From the NCBI GenBank assembly GCA_964490395.1, contig CAZBAS010000007.1, forward strand, positions 7,208-71,207: 64,000 nt of DNA. The letters are read 5' to 3'. The stretch comes from an uncultured Candidatus Saccharibacteria bacterium. Lineage in GTDB: Bacteria > Patescibacteriota > Doudnabacteria > UBA920. Positions 2,958 through 60,828 of the stretch are shown in pieces (within the stretch, counting starts at the first letter, position 1; each line of letters begins with the position of its first letter). The notes under the pieces are model-generated. The model was not told the DNA's origin and did not search any database. It saw only the letters and a list, made by a program, of their open reading frames with translations. Both the position numbers and the translations under genes were made by a program.

Positions 2958-3395
2958 TTGAACTTCGTGTACAATACCCGCATGACAAAAGTTGGTGTGG
3001 AACAGATTGGGTTTAACGATGCCGTTGCTACTGAACCAAGGTTCGCGTTTAGGCGCTGGTTTGAAACTTGGGTTGACGCGGTTAACAATGGCAACCGTGA
3101 TGTCTGGCAGCCCGCCTTACTCGATGTGATCACGGTCACCGATCTGGTGGATAAAGAACTAGGGTATGAAAGGTTTGTAGATTATATCACGACTCCACCC
3201 AAGCAGTTACGGATGCCAAGCGTGAAGGTGTCGATTGAGGACGGGTTGTACGTAGTACGAGGTTCGCTAGAATTGTTTTCTGATGGGTTCATGATTTTTG
3301 AGGGGACGTTCGAGACAGTGGTCCATGATATTGGAGTTAATGATTTTAAAATTTTCGGTATAACCTGCTATCCGCATTTTCGAGTTTCAACATAG
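2958..3395 (+). CDS. Hypothetical protein (no recognisable domain); tRNA-adjacent, with GC higher than its surroundings
   Basis: A 145-aa ORF in otherwise ORF-free space. Its composition is shifted relative to the neighbouring genes. The start is uncertain (alternative MTKVG... start). Confidence 0.4.
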   Translation: MNFVYNTRMTKVGVEQIGFNDAVATEPRFAFRRWFETWVDAVNNGNRDVWQPALLDVITVTDLVDKELGYERFVDYITTPPKQLRMPSVKVSIEDGLYVVRGSLELFSDGFMIFEGTFETVVHDIGVNDFKIFGITCYPHFRVST

Positions 3396-3450
3396 AAATT
3401 TTTTATTTATATTTTTATACATTCTGTGAGCGCTGTACCCGGTTCGGTCT

Positions 3451-40001: not shown

Positions 40002-40262
40002 AGCTTGCTTCTCCTTTCAAGAGAAATTGTTTACGGTTTACGCAAGCTATGCCAACAGGCATTTGCTGCGCGCTGGTATATGATTTATAACTATTTAGTT
40101 GTAAAAGAGCGCGAAACACGGACAATTGTCCGCTGGTAGGTGGATTAAGAATTATCCTACCAGATATATGGCTTACATAAGCCATAAGTCTCATAGGGCA
40201 ATTCGTGTATTCATTTGAAACAACATTATAGTATATTATTGCAAATATGTCAATATATAGGT

Positions 40263-40300
40263 ATACATAAACTCTGCTTAATTAAGCAGAGTTTATGTAT
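40263..40300. promoter_or_regulatory. 38-bp perfect palindrome (ATACATAAACTCTGCTTAA|TTAAGCAGAGTTTATGTAT) in the divergent region between the orphan operon and the pilin-like array
   Basis: It is exactly self-complementary over 19+19 bp and no U-tract follows. A second 9+9 palindrome, TATGGCTTA-CAT-AAGCCATA, sits at ~40166-40186. Confidence 0.6.
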
Positions 40301-40599
40301 ATTATTGTGTTGGTGTATGCGCCAAAATAGAGCATAAATAAGCCTTGCATAGACTTAGCATTGTATCTTCCTTGTCTTGGTCTGGCTCTGCTCGGCTCAC
40401 TGTTCCGTTTCGACGTGCTATCTATATATAGCCATAAGTATGAACCATTATTTTCACCTCCCAGATTTCATATGGGTCCTACAGAACTAATCCCATATCA
40501 TTTCTACAATTTGTCTTTAAGTTTCGAGAGTCATTTACTGTACGCATGGAATATGTTCTGGTATAATTTTTTTAAAGGCAGTTTACTTTAAGAAACCAA

Positions 40600-43267: not shown

Positions 43268-43432
43268 ATAAAATTCTCCGTACTGCGTCGTGTTTTTCTA
43301 CTCATTTCTGTGAGCACGGCTGCAGCCACATGACGCAGTGCGGATGAATATATATTGCAAGTTGCAAATTGTAGATTGCATAGGTGTGAACCTTTCAATC
43401 TACAATGTGAAATTTACAATCGGAACCTGCTC

Positions 43433-45016: not shown

Positions 45017-45129
45017 GAAATAGAATTAAGAATATAGAATAATGAATTATGCACAAGATAAAATCGAGTGTTTGATTCCGATTCATAATTCTTAATTCAT
45101 GATTCATAATTCTAGATTTTACATACCCT

Positions 45130-47285: not shown

Positions 47286-47361
47286 GGGCGGTTAGCTCAG
47301 TTGGTAGAGCGTCACATTGACGTTGTGAATGTCACAGGTTCGACTCCTGTACCGCCCACCA
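47286..47361 (+). tRNA. tRNA-Val (anticodon GAC)
   Basis: Acceptor GGGCGGT/ACCGCCC, D-arm GCTC-AGTTGGTA-GAGC, anticodon stem TCACA/TGTGA with loop TT-GAC-GT, T-arm ACAGG-TTCGACT-CCTGT, and an encoded CCA. Confidence 0.85.
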
Positions 47362-47563
47362 GAGTAAAATCCGAAGCACGAATTTCGAAATACGAAACAA
47401 ATTCGAGACTGTAAACTTCAATGCTCAGGATCAAGGTCTAGAATTTAGAGCATTTGAATTTAGAATTTATTTAGGATTTCAATATTCGAATTTCGAATTT
47501 TATAAAAATTATTAATTTTTATCGAAGAGTCAAACCGTACTGTAACAGTTATTTCGGTCCGAT

Positions 47564-48286
47564 TTGACGTTTCGATTCCAAAAGGAATCTAAACACACCA
47601 TGATAACGAAAGAAGCAGCTGAGCGCGTACTCGGCATAAAAATACAAAACCTCGATCTCTATATATCTGCGTGTACGCATCGTTCGTACTTGAACGAGCA
47701 TCGCAGTTTCCCCCTTCCTCACAACGAGCGCTTGGAGTTCTTGGGTGATGCTGTTTTAGAGCTTGCCGCAACAGAGCACCTCTATCGCACGTATCCTTAC
47801 TCAGAAGGGGAGCTTACGAACTTTCGCTCCGCGCTCGTAAACTATAAAATGCTTTCAGAAATAGCGGACCGATTGGGCCTAGAAGAGTTTTTGCTTATGT
47901 CTCGCGGCGAAGCAAAAGACACTGGCCGTGCGCGTCAGGTTATTTTGGCAAACGCGTTTGAAGCAGTGGTTGGGGCTATTTATTTAGATGTTGGTTTTGA
48001 GCCCGCAGCAGATTTTATCAATCGAGAAGTATTGCGAGAGCTGCCCGGAATTATTGCTACAGGCCAATATGTAGACCCGAAAAGCAAGCTCCAGGAAATT
48101 GTACAAGAGCGCAAAGGGGTTACTCCAACCTATGGTGTAGTTTCAGAAACTGGTCCAGATCACAATAAAGAGTTCGTTGTGGCTGTATACGTTCAGCAAG
48201 CAGAGGCGGGTCGGGGCACTGGACCTTCCAAGCAAGAAGCAGAAATTTCTGCCGCAGAAAATGCTTTGAAGAACATGGGTATCTAG
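47564..48286 (+). CDS. rnc: Ribonuclease III
   Basis: It has the catalytic signature ERLEFLGDAVLELAATEHLY and a C-terminal dsRBD. The likely true start is MITKEAAERVLG at 47600. Confidence 0.9.
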   Translation: MTFRFQKESKHTMITKEAAERVLGIKIQNLDLYISACTHRSYLNEHRSFPLPHNERLEFLGDAVLELAATEHLYRTYPYSEGELTNFRSALVNYKMLSEIADRLGLEEFLLMSRGEAKDTGRARQVILANAFEAVVGAIYLDVGFEPAADFINREVLRELPGIIATGQYVDPKSKLQEIVQERKGVTPTYGVVSETGPDHNKEFVVAVYVQQAEAGRGTGPSKQEAEISAAENALKNMGI

Positions 48287-48291
48287 TTACT

Positions 48292-48735
48292 CAAATCTAC
48301 AAATGAGACAAATATACAAATGTCTACAGATGCAGGATCTAAAAACAAACTCCTGTATGGCGAATTAAGCTATAAGCTTAATGGGTTATTATTTGCCATC
48401 CACAATGAGCTCGGGACGTATGCTCGCGAAAAGCAATACGGTGATTTACTGGCTCTAAAGTTAGATGAAAGTAATATATTGTTCCGAAGAGAGTGCATAA
48501 TTGGCGATTCAGGAAATATAGCAGACTTTATTATAGAAAATGTTATAATTTTAGAGTTGAAAGCAAAGCCGTTTTTGCTTAGAAGCGATTACGAGCAGGT
48601 TCAGCGTTATTTATATATTTGTAATTTACAACTCGGATTGCTTGTTAATTTTAGAAGTAGATTTCTACAGCCTAAAAGAATTCTGCATCGAGATTATTTG
48701 TAGCCATTTGTATATTTGTCTCATTTGTAGATTTG
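48292..48735. mobile_element. 444-bp cassette: perfect 31-bp inverted repeats (CAAATCTACAAATGAGACAAATATACAAATG at 48292-48322; its exact reverse complement at 48705-48735) bracketing a GxxExxY-family ORF
   Basis: The two arms are identical on reverse complementation. The ORF start ATG lies in the left arm, and the stop abuts the right arm. The cassette exactly fills the rnc-smc intergenic space. Confidence 0.7.
48320..48703 (+). CDS. GxxExxY-family protein (PD-(D/E)XK-like; the family commonly encoded inside 23S rRNA intervening sequences)
   Basis: The N-terminus LLYGELSYKLNGLLFAIHNELGTYAREKQYGDLLALKL and the C-terminus ...IADFIIENVIILELKA (E-hydrophobic-K) fit the family. Confidence 0.55.
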   Translation: MSTDAGSKNKLLYGELSYKLNGLLFAIHNELGTYAREKQYGDLLALKLDESNILFRRECIIGDSGNIADFIIENVIILELKAKPFLLRSDYEQVQRYLYICNLQLGLLVNFRSRFLQPKRILHRDYL

Positions 48736-48739
48736 GACT

Positions 48740-51358
48740 ATGCATTTAAAACGTTTAGAAATTCAAGGGTTTAAATCCTTTGCGCAAAAAACAGCGCTGG
48801 AGTTTGAGCCTGGTATAACCGCAATTGTTGGTCCCAACGGAAGTGGGAAGAGTAACGTTGCCGATAGTATCCGCTGGATACTAGGAGAACAATCAGTAAA
48901 ACAACTTCGCGGTAAAAAGAGTGACGATGTAATTTTTGCGGGGAGTGATAAACGTACACGCGGATCTTTTGCCGAAGTGATCGCTACGTTCGATAACGCA
49001 GATCGTCGTATTCCTTTAGACAGTAGTGAGGTTAGCATTGGTCGCCGTGTTGATAGAAGTGGGGAAAGCGAATATTTAATAAACGGTGCTCGGGTAAGAC
49101 TGCTAGACATTATAGACCTTGTGCTCAAGAGCAATATCGGTACGTCTCGGTATACCGTTATAGGGCAGGGCACTATAGACCAGCTCATTCTTGCTGGCCC
49201 TGCTGAAATAAAAGGTCTGCTTGATGAAGCGAGTGGTGTTAAAACGTACCACGTTCGTCGGGAGAAAACTCTAAAGCGTCTCGACCAGACCGCGCAAAAT
49301 TTGATGCGCGCCCAGGACGTGGTAAACGAGCTTGAACCACGCCTAAAAAGCTTGCGCAGACAGGCAAAGCGTATGGAAGCTCGTGAAGGCATTGAGCTAG
49401 AACTTAAGGTGTTGTTGCGAGAGCGCCTTGGGGGCAGCTTTTATGTGCTTTCAAATCAGGTCGCAGAGCTTACTCGTCGCCTCCAAGCGTTTACTGAGCA
49501 GCGGCAGGCAATTGAAGAGCAAATTCGAGCAGCACAGGAAAAAATAGAAAAAGAGGCTCAAGGGGAGAGTAGCGAAGCTGCACGGTTTGCTACACTACGA
49601 CGCGATCTTTTGAGTTTACAAGAACAAAAAAATAGATTATTTGAGCAGCGTAGTATATTGCAAGGTAAGCTCGCAAGTGCGAAAAGTGGCGCTGCAGGCG
49701 ACCCGCGCACTTTGCAATTGCAGGCACACCAGCTTGAGCTTAAGTTGCAAGCACTTGAGGAGCAGCTCGCTCGCGCAAACCAAGAGCTAGCGGGGAGCGT
49801 TGAGCAGGTGCAGCACTTGCAGCACGAGCGTGCCAACGTAGAAAAGCACTTACAAGAACTATACGCAGTGCTCGCCGAGCCAGATACGGTGGACCGAGAT
49901 GCATTTGCAAAGGCCATGGATGGCCTCCACAACGCCGTAGACAGTTTTCTTGAGCGTGTCGAAAGCGCTCAGAACCTCCTACAAATACAAGAACTTACGT
50001 CCACATTTAAGCACTCGTATGCAGACTTAAAGCATACGGCCCATGCTGTTTTGCAGCAGGGTGGTGGAAAGTCTGTAGAGCGACAAGAAGAGCTTCAGAA
50101 GCTTCACGTAGTGAAGTCGCGTATTGAGCAAGAGCTTTCCACGCTTTCCGCGAGGCGCGCGAGCGCGGAAACGAGTGTGCGACTATTGGAAGAACAGAAG
50201 CAGGCACTGTCTCAGGAGCATTTAGATGTAAGGCTGGAGCTGCAAAAAGCATCGAGTACAGGTACTGATAGCTTCGTAGAGCAGCTCACAAGCGAGTCTA
50301 CCCGCATAGAGCAAGAAGTGGCTACTCTTCAGGCTCGTATGCGATCCATTGAGGAAGAGCTGGCTAAGGCAGATGCAGGCGAAGCACAGCGCAGGCAGTT
50401 ACTTTCTGAGACCGAGCGCCATATACGAACCCTCCAAGATGCCATAAGCAAGCTCAGAGACCAAGAGTCGGGTATTAATATAGAAAAAGCTCGGTACGAC
50501 ACCCAGCTTGAGTCTTTAACAGCAGAGATAGAGCAGGTCTTTGGTGCTGATCTTGGAAGTGAAGTCATGCGAACTGCTGCTCCGAGCACTACGCCGAATA
50601 TAGACGAATCCATAGCGAAATTTAAGCACCAGCTTGAACTTATTGGCGGCGTAGACGAGATGACCATGCAGGAGTACCGAGAAACAGAGGAGCGCTTTAC
50701 GCGGCTTTCAGACCAGATTGCCGATCTAAACCGCAGTATGGAAGATTTAAAACAGGTTATGGATGAACTAGATGAACACATTAAGACCCGTTTTAATGAA
50801 GCTTTCCATAAAATAAACGAGCGGTTTGAAAACTACTTTAGAGTATTGTTCAATGGTGGTCGCGCTCAGCTTACACTCGTAAGGGCCAAGGACGAAGCAG
50901 CTGAAGAGGCCCTAGAAGCCAATGAAGCTCCAGAAGCTGTAGGCACCAATCTTCGTCCAGAAGAAAAGTTAGTTCAAAAATACGAAGCTGGTAGTAGTAA
51001 TGTAGTTGGTGTGGACATGAAAGCAACCCCACCGGGAAAGAAGCTTGCGAATATTCAAGCCCTTTCTGGCGGTGAACGAGCATTAACATCTATTGCCTTA
51101 CTGTGCGCACTGCTCGCGTGTTTCCCTTCGCCTTTTGTGGTGCTTGATGAAGTAGATGCAGCCCTTGATGAGGCCAATACCATTCGTTTTGGCCAAATAC
51201 TCGGAACTCTAGCCCACCAAACCCAATTCGTCACCATTTCCCACAATCGCGAGACCATGGCTCAAAGTACCATGCTGTATGGCGTTACCATGGGCGATGA
51301 CAGTGTTTCCAAAATCTTGAGCCTGAAGTTTGATCAGGCAACTGAGTATGCGAAATAG
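48740..51358 (+). CDS. smc: Chromosome partition protein SMC, a compact 872-aa form
   Basis: The N-terminal head is MHLKRLEIQGFKSFA...AIVGPNGSGKSNVADSIRWILGEQS. The C-terminal head has the signature LSGGERALTSIALLCALL and Walker B FVVLDEVDAALD. The central region is coiled-coil, with no obvious glycine-rich hinge. Confidence 0.8.
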   Translation: MHLKRLEIQGFKSFAQKTALEFEPGITAIVGPNGSGKSNVADSIRWILGEQSVKQLRGKKSDDVIFAGSDKRTRGSFAEVIATFDNADRRIPLDSSEVSIGRRVDRSGESEYLINGARVRLLDIIDLVLKSNIGTSRYTVIGQGTIDQLILAGPAEIKGLLDEASGVKTYHVRREKTLKRLDQTAQNLMRAQDVVNELEPRLKSLRRQAKRMEAREGIELELKVLLRERLGGSFYVLSNQVAELTRRLQAFTEQRQAIEEQIRAAQEKIEKEAQGESSEAARFATLRRDLLSLQEQKNRLFEQRSILQGKLASAKSGAAGDPRTLQLQAHQLELKLQALEEQLARANQELAGSVEQVQHLQHERANVEKHLQELYAVLAEPDTVDRDAFAKAMDGLHNAVDSFLERVESAQNLLQIQELTSTFKHSYADLKHTAHAVLQQGGGKSVERQEELQKLHVVKSRIEQELSTLSARRASAETSVRLLEEQKQALSQEHLDVRLELQKASSTGTDSFVEQLTSESTRIEQEVATLQARMRSIEEELAKADAGEAQRRQLLSETERHIRTLQDAISKLRDQESGINIEKARYDTQLESLTAEIEQVFGADLGSEVMRTAAPSTTPNIDESIAKFKHQLELIGGVDEMTMQEYRETEERFTRLSDQIADLNRSMEDLKQVMDELDEHIKTRFNEAFHKINERFENYFRVLFNGGRAQLTLVRAKDEAAEEALEANEAPEAVGTNLRPEEKLVQKYEAGSSNVVGVDMKATPPGKKLANIQALSGGERALTSIALLCALLACFPSPFVVLDEVDAALDEANTIRFGQILGTLAHQTQFVTISHNRETMAQSTMLYGVTMGDDSVSKILSLKFDQATEYAK

Positions 51359-53065: not shown

Positions 53066-53108
53066 TGCCGGAACATGTAACATATAGCATGTAGCATAAA
53101 ACATTTAA

Positions 53109-53138
53109 ATATCCCGCCGTGCGGGATATTTTTTTTGT
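53109..53138 (+). terminator. Rho-independent terminator after rpsP
   Basis: ATATCCCGC-CGT-GCGGGATAT followed by TTTTTTTT. Confidence 0.75.
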
Positions 53139-53193
53139 TATGTGTCATATGTTATGCGTTACATGCTACATGTTTTTGTTCTATGAATACATT

Positions 53194-57725: not shown

Positions 57726-58472
57726 ATGCTCATGAAGAAGCGGAAAACCATCTCTATTAGTATTATTACTTTATTTCCAAAGTTTACGGACCATTACACT
57801 ACCTTTGGCATTATCGCTCGCGCCGTTGCAAACAACTTGTTGAAGTGGCAGTCCATAGACTTGCGGCAGTTTGGGCTAGATGCCCGCCAAACAGTAGATG
57901 ACCGGCCGTATGGTGGTGGGGTAGGGATGGTATTAAAACCGGATGTTTTGTATGCAGCCATTGCTGCCGCAAGAAAGCAGCAAGCAGTAAGTAGTAAGCG
58001 CAAAGTACGGGTAATTTTACTCACACCATCGGGCAAGGTTTTTAAGCAGAAAGATGCAGTGCGGTTGGCAAGGTATGATGAGCTTATTTTTGTGTCTGGG
58101 CGGTACGAAGGGTACGATGAGCGTATTACGAAATTTGTAGACGAAGAACTGTCCATAGGTGACTATGTGCTTATGGGCGGTGAGCTTCCTGCGCTCGTAA
58201 TAAGCGAGGCAGTACTTCGTAATGTGCCAGGTGTGTTGGGGAAAGATGAGTCCGCAGTGGGTGAATCTTTTAGTGAACAGATGTTGGAGTATCCGCAGTT
58301 CACGAAACCTGAACAGTGGAAAGTGGAAAGTGGAAAGTGGAAAGGCAAAACTTTTAAAGTGCCGAAAGTACTGCTTACCGGGCATCATGCAAACGTAAAG
58401 GCGTGGCGCGCCCAGGAAGCGCTGAGGCGTACTAAAAAAAGACGGCCAGACATGTTAATTGACCAAAATTAA
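57726..58472 (+). CDS. trmD: tRNA (guanine37-N1)-methyltransferase
   Basis: It has ISIITLFPKF...IDLRQFGLDARQTVDDRPYGGGVGMVLKPDVL and a SPOUT fold. The ORF-track start at 57693 lies inside the terminator hairpin, so I placed the start at the downstream Met (MLMKKRK). Confidence 0.85.
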   Translation: MLMKKRKTISISIITLFPKFTDHYTTFGIIARAVANNLLKWQSIDLRQFGLDARQTVDDRPYGGGVGMVLKPDVLYAAIAAARKQQAVSSKRKVRVILLTPSGKVFKQKDAVRLARYDELIFVSGRYEGYDERITKFVDEELSIGDYVLMGGELPALVISEAVLRNVPGVLGKDESAVGESFSEQMLEYPQFTKPEQWKVESGKWKGKTFKVPKVLLTGHHANVKAWRAQEALRRTKKRRPDMLIDQN

Positions 58473-58542
58473 ATAAAATTGTCCATAATTGCCCAGAATT
58501 GAAATGGTAATTTTGGGCAATTATGGTCAATTTTGGACAATT

Positions 58543-59541
58543 ATGGGCAATATATTCACTGTGACACAACTTAAAACGAGATTAGATAAATTCTTGGTAG
58601 AACAACTGCCAAGCCTTTCTCGTAGCCAGATTCAGCGTGGCATAGAAGCAGGTGCGGTAGCGGTAAATGGGGTGGTGCAGAAAGAGTCGAAGTTTGTGGT
58701 GCGAGTGGGAGATGAGGTGGGGTATGCGCAAGAATCAATAATCAAAAATCAAGAATCAAGTAACCGGCTTGCACGCCAGAAAATCAAAACGCTTTATGAT
58801 AATCATGGGCTGCTCATTATAGACAAGCCTGCGGGGCTGAGTGTGCACCCGGGTGCGGGGGTGAAGGGGGATTCGCTCTCGGATCTATTGCTGTTGCAGT
58901 TTCCAGAAATATCCGGGGTGGGTGAGGCGCATCGTCAGGGCATAGTGCACCGTCTCGATAAAGATACGAGCGGGGTTATGTTGGTGGCAAAAACACCTGA
59001 CATGTATGAGTACTTAAAAGATGCGTTTGCTGAAAGAAAAGTCAAAAAAGAATACATTGCGCTTGTCCAAGGTGTGCCTGAAAAAGCGCATGAGTTTATA
59101 GATGTGCCAATTGGCAAGAGTAAGGCCGATTTCCGCAAATATACCACAACGGACATGCTTGAACCAAAGCCGTCCCTGACCGAATATCGTGTTTTAGAGG
59201 TTTTACCCCTACCAGCTACCAGCTATCCGCCCCAGGCTGACCTGCCTCGGGCGGGCAACCTGCTCATTGACAAAACAGCCCTAATTTCTGTAAACTTACA
59301 TACAGGTCGAACACATCAGATCCGTGTTCACATGAAAAGCATTGGCCATCCACTTATGGGCGATAGTTTGTATGGTGGTAAAAAGTCAAAGCTTTCTGGC
59401 CTTATCCGGCAGTTCTTGCATGCTCGTCGCATAGAAGTACAGCTTCCCGACGGCACCTGGATAGAAGCGGAGTCAGAGCTCGCAGGAGACCTAAAGGATG
59501 TACTTGTTTCTTTGGGCAGTAAAGCAGTAAAGAATTTATAA
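58543..59541 (+). CDS. RluA-family 23S rRNA pseudouridine synthase (RluD/RluC-like) with an N-terminal S4 domain
   Basis: The S4 domain is RLDKFLVEQLPSLSRSQIQRGIEAGAVAVNG. The catalytic motif is HRLDKDTSGVMLVAKT. The start is uncertain; the ORF-track start at 58489 runs through an AT-rich palindromic repeat. Confidence 0.8.
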   Translation: MGNIFTVTQLKTRLDKFLVEQLPSLSRSQIQRGIEAGAVAVNGVVQKESKFVVRVGDEVGYAQESIIKNQESSNRLARQKIKTLYDNHGLLIIDKPAGLSVHPGAGVKGDSLSDLLLLQFPEISGVGEAHRQGIVHRLDKDTSGVMLVAKTPDMYEYLKDAFAERKVKKEYIALVQGVPEKAHEFIDVPIGKSKADFRKYTTTDMLEPKPSLTEYRVLEVLPLPATSYPPQADLPRAGNLLIDKTALISVNLHTGRTHQIRVHMKSIGHPLMGDSLYGGKKSKLSGLIRQFLHARRIEVQLPDGTWIEAESELAGDLKDVLVSLGSKAVKNL

Positions 59542-59640
59542 TATTTAGACAATAAAATGTCTAATGTCTAATACCTAATTCCTAATGGAATGCTCCGGAT
59601 ATTTAGACATTAGAAATTAGTAATTAGACATTTCATTTAT

Positions 59641-60713: not shown

Positions 60714-60810
60714 AGCTCAAAAATCAAAAGTCAAAACTTCAACTCCTAACTTAAAACTGGTAGTATTACAAGTTTGTAGTTTTTGGTTGAAGTTTTGCTT
60801 TTTGAGTTCT
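60714..60810. terminator. Long AT-rich hairpin (arms AGCTCAAAAATCAAAAGTCAAAACTTCAAC and GTTGAAGTTTTGCTTTTTGAGTTCT) between the prx stop and the sodA start
   Basis: It has ~24-bp imperfect complementary arms with a ~40-nt loop. The position fits a terminator for prx and/or an operator for sodA. Confidence 0.5.
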
Positions 60811-60828
60811 AAGATTTTATTTAATTAT

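Follow-up and report, generated by a model that had tools for sequence, protein, structure and literature searches.

The rnc and smc genes in the 64-kb stretch of DNA analysed here (the window) are separated by a cassette in which a small nuclease-like gene is enclosed by long inverted repeats. This cassette is one member of a widespread palindromic element family, which occupies gene junctions and the inside of genes in Patescibacteria (CPR), the group in which homologues and related contigs place the window genome. The arms of these elements, composed of tandem ~8-nt units (ATACNAAT / CTACAAAT type), enclose either a mini-nuclease gene or a short loop. We found no published description of this element family. 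In the searchable literature, work that names GxxExxY, PDDEXK_3, PF13366 or TIGR04256 does not describe the architecture, no report on palindromic elements in Patescibacteria was found, and a recent review of MITEs omits this group.

The cassette between rnc and smc

The cassette is delimited by a perfect inverted repeat of 31 nt, with CAAATCTACAAATGAGACAAATATACAAATG at 48292-48322 on the + strand and its exact reverse complement at 48705-48735. These are the two matches to CAAATCTACAAATGAGACAAATATACAAATG in the window even when up to three mismatches are allowed (0.00 expected, 100 shuffles), and the repeat grows to 40 nt with 95% complementarity and two mismatches (48292-48331 / 48696-48735). 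The 12-mer AATATACNAATG, which forms the inner end of the exact left arm, likewise occurs in the window only at the cassette, where an inverted copy lies at 48705-48716 (0.03 expected). The parts of the cassette and its neighbours are as follows.

47600..48286, + strand: rnc (RNase III), upstream neighbour, given as context (TIGR02191, 3.2e-70)
48292..48331, + strand: left arm, exact part 48292-48322; holds the ORF start codon and the first 4 codons; composed of ~8-nt units as CAAAT-CTACAAAT-GAGACAAAT-ATACAAATG
48311..48322, + strand: family motif AATATACNAATG; its last 3 bases are the start codon
48320..48703, + strand: GxxExxY / PDDEXK_3 ORF of 127 aa, from profile matches and alignment
48696..48735, + strand: right arm, exact part 48705-48735; holds the last two codons and the TAG stop
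48705..48716, - strand: inverted copy of the family motif; begins 2 nt past the stop codon
48740..51358, + strand: smc, downstream neighbour, given as context (TIGR02168, 6e-195)

All three genes lie on the + strand, and the cassette fills the spacer between rnc and smc. In the ORF list rnc opens at 47564, its probable start being the ATG at 47600; the stop codon of rnc (48284-48286) is located 5 nt ahead of the left arm. The smc ATG at 48740 follows the right arm by 4 nt, so that any ribosome-binding region of smc would sit at the foot of the stem. Between the arms there is just one sizeable ORF (48320-48703), whose ATG is formed by the final three bases of the exact left arm and whose TAG stop lies inside the extended right arm. 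The original prediction, which had described perfect 31-bp inverted repeats around a 127-aa GxxExxY ORF, an intervening sequence (IVS)-like architecture with the start codon in the left arm, and an exact fit into the rnc-smc spacer, is borne out by these coordinates and by profile matches to PF13366 and TIGR04256. It had also raised the possibility that the arms are common, unrelated repeats; within the 64-kb window, the arm sequence is confined to the cassette.

RNA folding of the region 48285-48745 (461 nt) pairs the arms as one long stem at -140.8 kcal/mol, with a z-score of -8.5 relative to shuffled sequences. Sequence scans gave no excess of promoter-like or terminator-like sites near the window cassette over shuffles, and a terminator scan found no T-tract terminator at it. 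The window holds no further copies of the ORF, the specific arm and motif are absent elsewhere in it, and its Rfam families are tRNAs alone, with no rRNA. Three other readings of the palindrome were rejected: an intrinsic terminator, as the cassette has no T tract; an integron attC site, as the palindrome is split around the ORF and not placed 3' of it; and a TIGR array, as the units are far too short. Several more long AT-rich intergenic hairpins are present in the window, made of other units than the cassette arms.

The encoded protein matches PF13366 PDDEXK_3 (7.8e-18, 65.4 bits, cut-off 22), its only Pfam match, and TIGR04256 GxxExxY (4.9e-17, 62.4 bits, cut-off 35). An alignment of 39 sequences contains six invariant residues, E37, D69, E79, K81, Q93 and Y97, which include the catalytic D...ExK of the PD-(D/E)XK fold. 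The protein is a minimal Cas4/RecB-like PD-(D/E)XK core and a predicted nuclease. It shares the catalytic D, ExK and QxxxY with the Cas4 and RecB-family nuclease domains, but consists of the ~120-aa core alone, without a helicase partner and without the cysteine cluster that holds the Fe-S centre in Cas4. In the family, the protein begins with a disordered segment (M-S/T-T-N...) and ends with a tail (...YL*, ...RIxRI...), both of them translated arm units. One relative, the cassette of L002, has an in-frame TAG stop at the invariant Q93. A sequence search of the PDB with the cassette protein matched no solved structure (best E = 0.74), the PADLOC defence models gave no match, PHROGs gave one weak match to a family of unknown function, and no relatives of the protein were found on viral contigs.

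A palindromic element family at gene junctions and inside genes

The family was sampled through 80 genomic loci that encode relatives of the protein, and the best inverted repeat between the ORF flanks was scored at each of them. A flanking inverted repeat with a score of at least 13 is present at 56 of the 76 homologous loci (74%), compared with 1-4% of control positions or other ORFs. The start codon lies within the arms, and the stop codon borders directly on them. They are arrays of degenerate ~8-nt units of the ATACNAAT type, with variants such as ATAC[G/T/A/C]AAT, CTACAAAT, ACAGATxT and similar sequences. An 11-nt core, AATATACNAAT, is found within 130 nt upstream of the ATG at 40 of 77 loci and its complement after the stop codon at 38, and at none of the 77 is it found upstream in the opposite orientation. 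The last two bases of this core are commonly the first two of the ATG, the window cassette included. Thus, AATATACNAAT(G) and its complement are present in fixed orientation at unrelated sites, as terminal inverted repeats. Arms of the same locus match each other better (median score 16) than arms of different loci do (median score 10, p = 6e-19), which shows that the two arms co-evolve.

All 76 homologous loci lie outside rRNA and are flanked by protein-coding ORFs, and the spacers around the family ORFs mostly measure a few tens of nucleotides. The ORF is co-directional with both neighbours at 60 loci and opposed to both at one. The occupied junctions belong to diverse housekeeping genes, such as Wzm and Wzt, a Mur ligase, AspRS and a YbaK-like gene, frr and rseP, and PrgI. 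Several divergent copies can reside in one genome, as with L037, L060 and L061, which all come from one metagenome-assembled genome (MAG), and fragments of related MAGs carry two to five copies within about 6 kb (L073, L079, L071). Beyond Patescibacteria, there were only three plasmid matches, one of which (Treponema) has a 16-nt flanking repeat; this sample is too small to gauge how general the architecture is.

Two pairs of loci with unrelated flanks mark the limits of the unit. The proteins of L048 and L057 are 82% identical, and the nucleotide homology of these loci runs from left arm to right arm. For L040 and L077, whose proteins are also 82% identical, homology clearly stops at the right arm, while its left limit is less sharp. 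These limits indicate that ORF and arms are one unit that moves together. Family dN/dS values range from 0.05 to 0.17, and the arms are far better conserved than synonymous sites: between L017 and L037, pS reaches 0.34, yet 44 of 45 arm positions are identical on each side. ORF and arms alike are under purifying selection.

In addition to the ORF-bearing form, the family includes ORF-less palindromes of ~105-120 nt, which share the ends of the cassette (TGATACCAATATACNAATG ... ATTNGTATATTGGTAT) and still hold the ATG and the first codons. They occupy spacers between co-directional genes in the same MAGs, at times several in succession, and at some loci a palindrome is found in almost every spacer. 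A covariance model of this form (R1) detected about 20 copies in 509 kb of related loci and had no match in the 64-kb window. Copies from four MAGs align with 77% mean column identity and invariant ends, 12 of 13 ORF-less elements have the polarity of the flanking genes, and in several the first three bases double as the stop codon of the upstream gene.

The element also occurs within coding sequences. When 1.8 billion cluster representatives were scanned, the best matches included many long proteins. Eight of these were compared with Pfam: in seven, the domain lies within a recognisable host protein or is fused to one (two RecG proteins, three GT4 glycosyltransferases, one RseP and one enolase), and the eighth has it in an otherwise unassigned protein. 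In the sequences retrieved for these in-frame copies, the arms are translated as low-complexity peptide. At the DNA level, the enolase gene of L165 holds a full cassette and an extra ORF-less element, both in frame and with paired arms, while in the RecG gene of L166 the domain is in frame and the arms have almost decayed. In-gene insertion, a hallmark of the Rickettsia palindromic elements (RPEs), is therefore a property of the family and not of the window copy. The in-frame elements are sometimes placed in surface loops of the protein.

At the junction of the window itself, the gene order ftsH-rnc-cassette-smc is conserved in L002, L003, L004 and L082, where the cassette proteins are 61-67% and the RNase III proteins 63-75% identical to those of the window, which is consistent with vertical descent of the cassette at this site. 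The arms in these syntenic relatives are only 77-82% complementary, so the perfect stem of the window is an exception. Among 42 metagenomic loci with both rnc and smc, the gap between the two genes is short and empty (at most 100 nt) at 24 and spans 450-775 nt at 13, and bare hairpins whose arms are built of repeats occur at several. In L084 the spacer is empty and measures 42 nt, with an rnc 84% identical to that of the cassette-bearing L082, and L083 contains an unrelated 135-aa ORF. Since L084 is nested within the cassette clade and the outgroup L004 keeps the cassette, the cassette is ancestral here and was cleanly lost at least once. It is not a recent insertion, as relatives carry it with diverged arms. 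No target-site duplication is evident at the window cassette (TTACT before the left arm, GACT after the right arm) or at the inspected ORF-less copies, and the filled and empty alleles compared are too far diverged to reveal one. The mobile IVS-like element of the original prediction is supported for the family, where the unit stands in unrelated flanks and is present or absent at rnc-smc, and not as a recent arrival at this site. A comparison of the junction in relatives, suggested at the same time, shows such presence and absence, and also, in part, the situation that had been named as a sign against mobility and conserved structure, with diverged arms (77-82%) in relatives.

The PDDEXK_3 cassette adjoins rnc in the window's own clade only. 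Three other rnc-smc junctions (L089, L090, L102) contain an ORF of a different family, PF05635 (23S_rRNA_IVP), with repeat-built arms of its own and the ATG inside an arm. Hairpins are found at 6% of junctions after rnc and at 16% of other co-directional junctions, which amounts to no enrichment.

The arms as RNA stem or as DNA ends

On balance, we favour the explanation that the window cassette is a long-established copy, passed on by vertical descent, of a palindromic element whose arms form an RNA stem and a probable substrate of RNase III. Having no detectable promoter or terminator of its own, the cassette presumably lies on a read-through transcript that runs from rnc into smc. In the transcript, the arms would pair into an A/U-rich stem of 31-40 bp, as computed by folding, which would bury the AUG and the stop codon of the cassette together with the foot of the smc translation start. 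The ORF could then be translated only before the right arm is made or while ribosomes hold the stem open. By analogy with the Coxiella 23S IVS and with Correia elements, RNase III would probably recognise this stem, excise the cassette RNA and part the rnc from the smc message. The design of the cassette matches that of the Coxiella 23S IVS, which makes RNase III cleavage plausible. The protein, for its part, may help the element to spread or to be maintained.

Several observations fit this explanation poorly. Obligatory cutting by RNase III would split the host mRNAs of the in-frame copies in RecG, enolase, RseP and glycosyltransferases, and long-lasting purifying selection on a stationary copy is not predicted for a purely selfish element. 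Moreover, no RNA-specific signature emerged from mismatch types, duplex energy or covariation. G.U mismatches show no excess over A.C mismatches that would tell RNA from DNA constraint, either in the cassette arms (68 versus 57) or in the ORF-less elements (33 versus 29), the duplex energies of the sense and antisense strands are similar (-40.2 versus -38.5 kcal/mol, p = 0.13), and covariation in five syntenic cassettes does not exceed that of shuffles. In favour of a stem, 92% of arm positions in these five form a standard pair, G-U counted. Across the family, the variable base within a unit frequently meets a mismatch, and the conserved features of the arms look like a sequence motif as much as like a helix.

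An explanation at the DNA level alone, which we regard as possible rather than probable, keeps substantial weight, because there is no RNA signature or strand asymmetry and no covariation above shuffles, the variable base is often unpaired, and cleavage would destroy in-frame copies. Here, the arms would be terminal inverted repeats with arrays of protein-binding sites, likened to the multiple transposase sites in the ends of Tn7 or Mu. The GxxExxY nuclease or a trans-acting factor would recognise them, so that the element could transpose or home into ORF-less palindromes, and the RNA stem would be incidental. Conserved arm motifs with freely mismatched variable unit positions, the lack of both a G.U over A.C bias and strand asymmetry, the movement of ORF and arms as a unit, the same ends in ORF-less derivatives, in-frame insertions like those of RPEs, and a protein that has its full set of nuclease catalytic residues and a Cas4/RecB-like fold all agree with it. 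To our knowledge, however, a 125-aa PD-(D/E)XK core alone has no precedent as a transposase, and non-nuclease 23S_rRNA_IVP ORFs occur in the same architecture. The paralogues within one genome are divergent, which argues against a recent burst of copying; target-site duplications were not found at the window cassette or the inspected ORF-less copies; cruciform extrusion from duplex DNA would be improbable for arms at least 364 nt apart; and arms are conserved even in copies that stay at one site.

A tentative and rather doubtful proposal joins both levels: the mini-nuclease, a stand-alone Cas4/RecB-like core, would be a mobility or maintenance enzyme that recognises the hairpin or the unit arrays of ORF-less palindromes and copies its own gene into them, with the arms as portable homology and, in transcripts, as RNase III-sensitive punctuation. 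If so, this would be a new mechanism of mobility, in which arms and nuclease that land in essential proteins become a translated inserted domain. It would account jointly for rRNA IVSs that bear an ORF, for palindromes of the RPE kind and for the many GxxExxY and 'four helix bundle' orphans in bacterial genomes.

A third possibility is that the module has been domesticated by the host after past mobility, so that the palindromes act as processing or translational-coupling punctuation of long polycistronic mRNAs and the GxxExxY protein provides a beneficial nuclease role, such as repair or defence. We consider this improbable. Strong purifying selection on ORF and arms in vertically inherited, syntenic copies would fit, as would the exact filling of spacers, sometimes with supply of the upstream stop codon, the palindromes in nearly every spacer at some loci, and the persistence of the rnc-smc cassette while RNase III has diverged to 63-75% identity. 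The patchy presence of the element, with the clean loss in L084 and many empty junctions, the in-frame stop at Q93 in L002, the absence of matches to known defence families, and insertions in essential genes, which look parasitic, speak against it.

The original prediction had alternatively proposed a self-regulating RNase III substrate that controls read-through from rnc to smc. The cassette does lie directly downstream of rnc, its perfect 31-bp stem is in principle an ideal RNase III substrate, and E. coli rnc is autoregulated via a stem-loop in its own message. A role specific to rnc is nonetheless unsupported and very unlikely: the cassette is found at this junction in one clade only and the same type at many unrelated junctions, more than half of the rnc-smc junctions (24 of 42) have a short, empty gap, and hairpins are not enriched after rnc compared with elsewhere (6% versus 16%). 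Finally, the notion of an ordinary resident gene whose flanking repeat is a chance match or a generic terminator or hairpin, which could appeal to the other long AT-rich intergenic hairpins of the window, is refuted by zero expected chance matches, bracketing in 74% of the homologous loci by arms whose shared motifs keep one orientation, arms that travel with the ORF and the absence of a T-tract terminator.

Relation to known systems

Among the closest counterparts of the cassette are the ORF-bearing IVSs of 23S rRNA in Coxiella burnetii and Leptospira (S23p / PF05635). Both have a long inverted-repeat stem with an ORF of ~120-130 aa in the loop, a stem arm composed of tandem 7-8-nt repeats upstream of the ATG with a poor Shine-Dalgarno sequence, and an ORF in the sense direction of the host transcript. 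In the Coxiella IVS, tandem 7-nt repeats (GACAGAT) in the stem are located just 5' of the ATG, which has a poor Shine-Dalgarno sequence, and RNase III cuts at the first repeat (PMC4990558). The likeness to ORF-bearing rRNA IVSs is therefore closer than had been claimed, as Coxiella shares the heptamers before the ATG (PMC4990558). The two differ in host transcript, which for the cassette is an mRNA operon spacer and not 23S rRNA (helix 25 or helix 45), and in the ORF, which belongs to the PF13366 nuclease family and not to the PF05635 four-helix bundle. Furthermore, the Coxiella ORF is decaying, whereas the cassette ORF is under strong purifying selection (dN/dS 0.05-0.17), and excision by RNase III has been demonstrated for the Coxiella IVS, whereas for the cassette we infer it. 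ORF-bearing IVSs have a sporadic distribution, with loss and horizontal transfer (PMC4990558), a trait that the cassette shares with them.

The cassette has the extended terminal-inverted-repeat stem of an IVS, with the optional ORF in the loop. Its position in an mRNA operon spacer and an ORF from a family other than PF05635 place it outside the classical definition. GxxExxY had been taken for the usual ORF family of 23S IVSs, which proved incorrect: that family is PF05635, none of the 76 homologous loci is in rRNA, and a census of rRNA insertions in CPR bacteria lists LAGLIDADG, GIY-YIG and 23S_rRNA_IVP ORFs and no PDDEXK_3 (PMC11270868 supplement). The IVS design, with a repeat-built stem, a loop ORF and the ATG in the stem, thus extends beyond rRNA, is common to two unrelated ORF families, and grades into ORF-less palindromes and in-frame protein insertions. 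Of the small genes in annotated genomes that lack an explanation, those for GxxExxY and 'four helix bundle / 23S rRNA IVS' proteins rank with the commonest. The question of where rRNA intervening sequences come from, open since 1990, now becomes approachable. The family is defined by sequence and can be used to study RNase III on mRNA stems, the target of the mini-nuclease and the spread of palindromes in very small genomes. For annotation, cassettes may split or extend housekeeping genes in CPR genomes.

RPE, Correia and ERIC elements are ORF-less palindromes with conserved ends in operon spacers, and the family has counterparts of this kind at ~105-120 nt. RPEs also have in-frame copies within protein-coding genes, and those of the family are likewise translated as low-complexity segments. 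When Correia elements are transcribed as part of mRNAs, RNase III cleaves them within the terminal repeats (MITE review). In contrast to these three groups, the cassette family includes a form with a conserved and selected nuclease gene, which can itself be inserted in frame, its polarity is fixed relative to transcription, and no target-site duplication or partner transposase was identified for it.

The REPIN-RAYT system consists of a gene between inverted palindromic repeats that also occur in large numbers as intergenic hairpins without an ORF, and the gene persists through long vertical descent. The cassette family resembles it in having a repeat-flanked gene and ORF-less hairpin relatives, and in one of the sampled loci, L102, a palindrome flanks a RAYT-like ORF. 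The RAYT protein itself is an HUH/Y1 transposase that is usually present in one or a few copies per genome, whereas the cassette encodes a PD-(D/E)XK nuclease and occurs in several divergent copies; as there is no Y1 transposase, the cassette cannot be assigned to this system.

Homing endonuclease genes, free-standing or carried by introns, are likewise small nuclease genes that are present or absent at a fixed site between conserved host genes, as the cassette is in L082 and L084, and the cassette arms could serve as portable homology. Unlike these genes, fixed copies of the cassette are under sustained purifying selection, and the cassette architecture also occurs with the non-nuclease PF05635 ORF.

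Small genes within palindromes

The enclosure of a small gene by inverted arms extends beyond the GxxExxY family. Three loci contain ORFs that match the classical IVS-protein family 23S_rRNA_IVP (PF05635), a four-helix bundle family, and a fourth ORF resembles this family by eye only:

PF05635 and PF05635-like ORFs
L089:3259-3633, 23S_rRNA_IVP (PF05635), family match
L090:3259-3633, 23S_rRNA_IVP (PF05635), family match
L102:2881-3267, 23S_rRNA_IVP (PF05635), family match
L019:1334-1714, PF05635-like, family resemblance by eye only

Each of the four lies within its own inverted repeat of unit arrays (GTCAAAA, CCAAAT, TCCTTTA) and has its ATG inside an arm, and three of them occupy the rnc-smc junction. 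At locus L009, a 96-aa ORF (1224-1514) with an N-terminal sequence that looks GIY-YIG-like by eye sits within a 56-nt inverted-repeat match (...CATTCCCGCGCAGGCGGGAATC) and may be a further palindrome-enclosed small nuclease gene. The L102 contig carries, in addition to its PF05635 cassette, a RAYT-like ORF (397-1104; recognized by eye from IS200-type sequence motifs) flanked by the palindrome ACGGAGGACTGTCCTCCGT.

Two GxxExxY cassettes show distinct alterations. The L002 ORF, which shares 96% identity with its L082 counterpart, is intact except for an in-frame TAG (3277-3279) where the codon for the invariant Q93 is expected; either the gene became a pseudogene very recently or the TAG is a sequencing error. 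In L057, a perfect, GC-rich 20-nt palindrome (CCTGCCTGCCGGCAGGCAGG, ~3380-3400) interrupts the right arm, as seen by comparison with its 82% identical relative L048.

Palindromes without an ORF

At four loci, palindromes that share the ends of the cassette but contain no gene take up entire spacers between co-directional genes:

ORF-less palindromes in operon spacers
L079:2446-2552
L079:4086-4192
L038:1629-1747
L059:1906-2014
L073:1604-1756, spacer
L073:2780-2997, spacer
L073:3394-3522, spacer
L073:4507-4654, spacer

In several of these elements, the first three bases (TAA or TGA) serve the upstream gene as its stop codon, and L073 has one element per spacer almost throughout. Besides the cassette, the window contains eight more long, AT-rich intergenic hairpins:

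AT-rich hairpins in the window
40226-40337
43354-43420
45023-45098
47379-47500, between tRNA-Val (47286-47361) and rnc
53069-53165
58458-58551
59551-59637
60716-60813, arms CAAAAGTCAAAAC

Their arms consist of quasi-repeats of 6-9-nt units, with a unit sequence that differs from hairpin to hairpin; those of 60716-60813 are similar to the arms of the L089 PF05635 cassette. These hairpins may be ORF-less kin of the cassette families. Hairpin 47379-47500 is presumably part of the rnc 5' leader. Another assembly of this genome, L001, has a run of Ns (327-380) exactly in the loop of this hairpin, which suggests that assemblers have trouble with such palindromes.

In-frame copies in housekeeping proteins

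In enolase, RecG, RseP, and GT4 glycosyltransferases (L165, L166, and proteins P0130, P0122, P0140, and P0151), the GxxExxY domain also occurs as an in-frame insertion, together with the translation of its arms; P0140 additionally contains three ORF-less repeat peptide copies in frame.

Interrupted genes
L165:1501-3360, enolase, in-frame insertions ~2016-2170 and ~2305-2880
L166:1001-3700, RecG, in-frame insertion ~2380-2820

These GxxExxY copies resemble Rickettsia palindromic elements in their in-frame insertion within host proteins, but differ from them in bringing a folded nuclease domain.

Other occupants of the rnc-smc junction, and SMC

Further genes were found between rnc and smc:

Other genes at the junction
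L083:3168-3575, 135-aa ORF
L099:3402-3788, Cys-rich ORF, weak DUF2197 match
L143:3277-3840, prepilin-type protein
L151:3200-3526, 108-aa ORF
L153:3201-3536 (-), HTH_3 regulator, opposite strand

No convincing ORF was found in the 450-560-nt gaps of L092, L096, L108, and L128. The window SMC (48740-51358) is a shortened coiled-coil version of only 872 aa, with two separate stretches matching TIGR02168 (a model of 1181 positions), and the L004 SMC is similarly short (874 aa).
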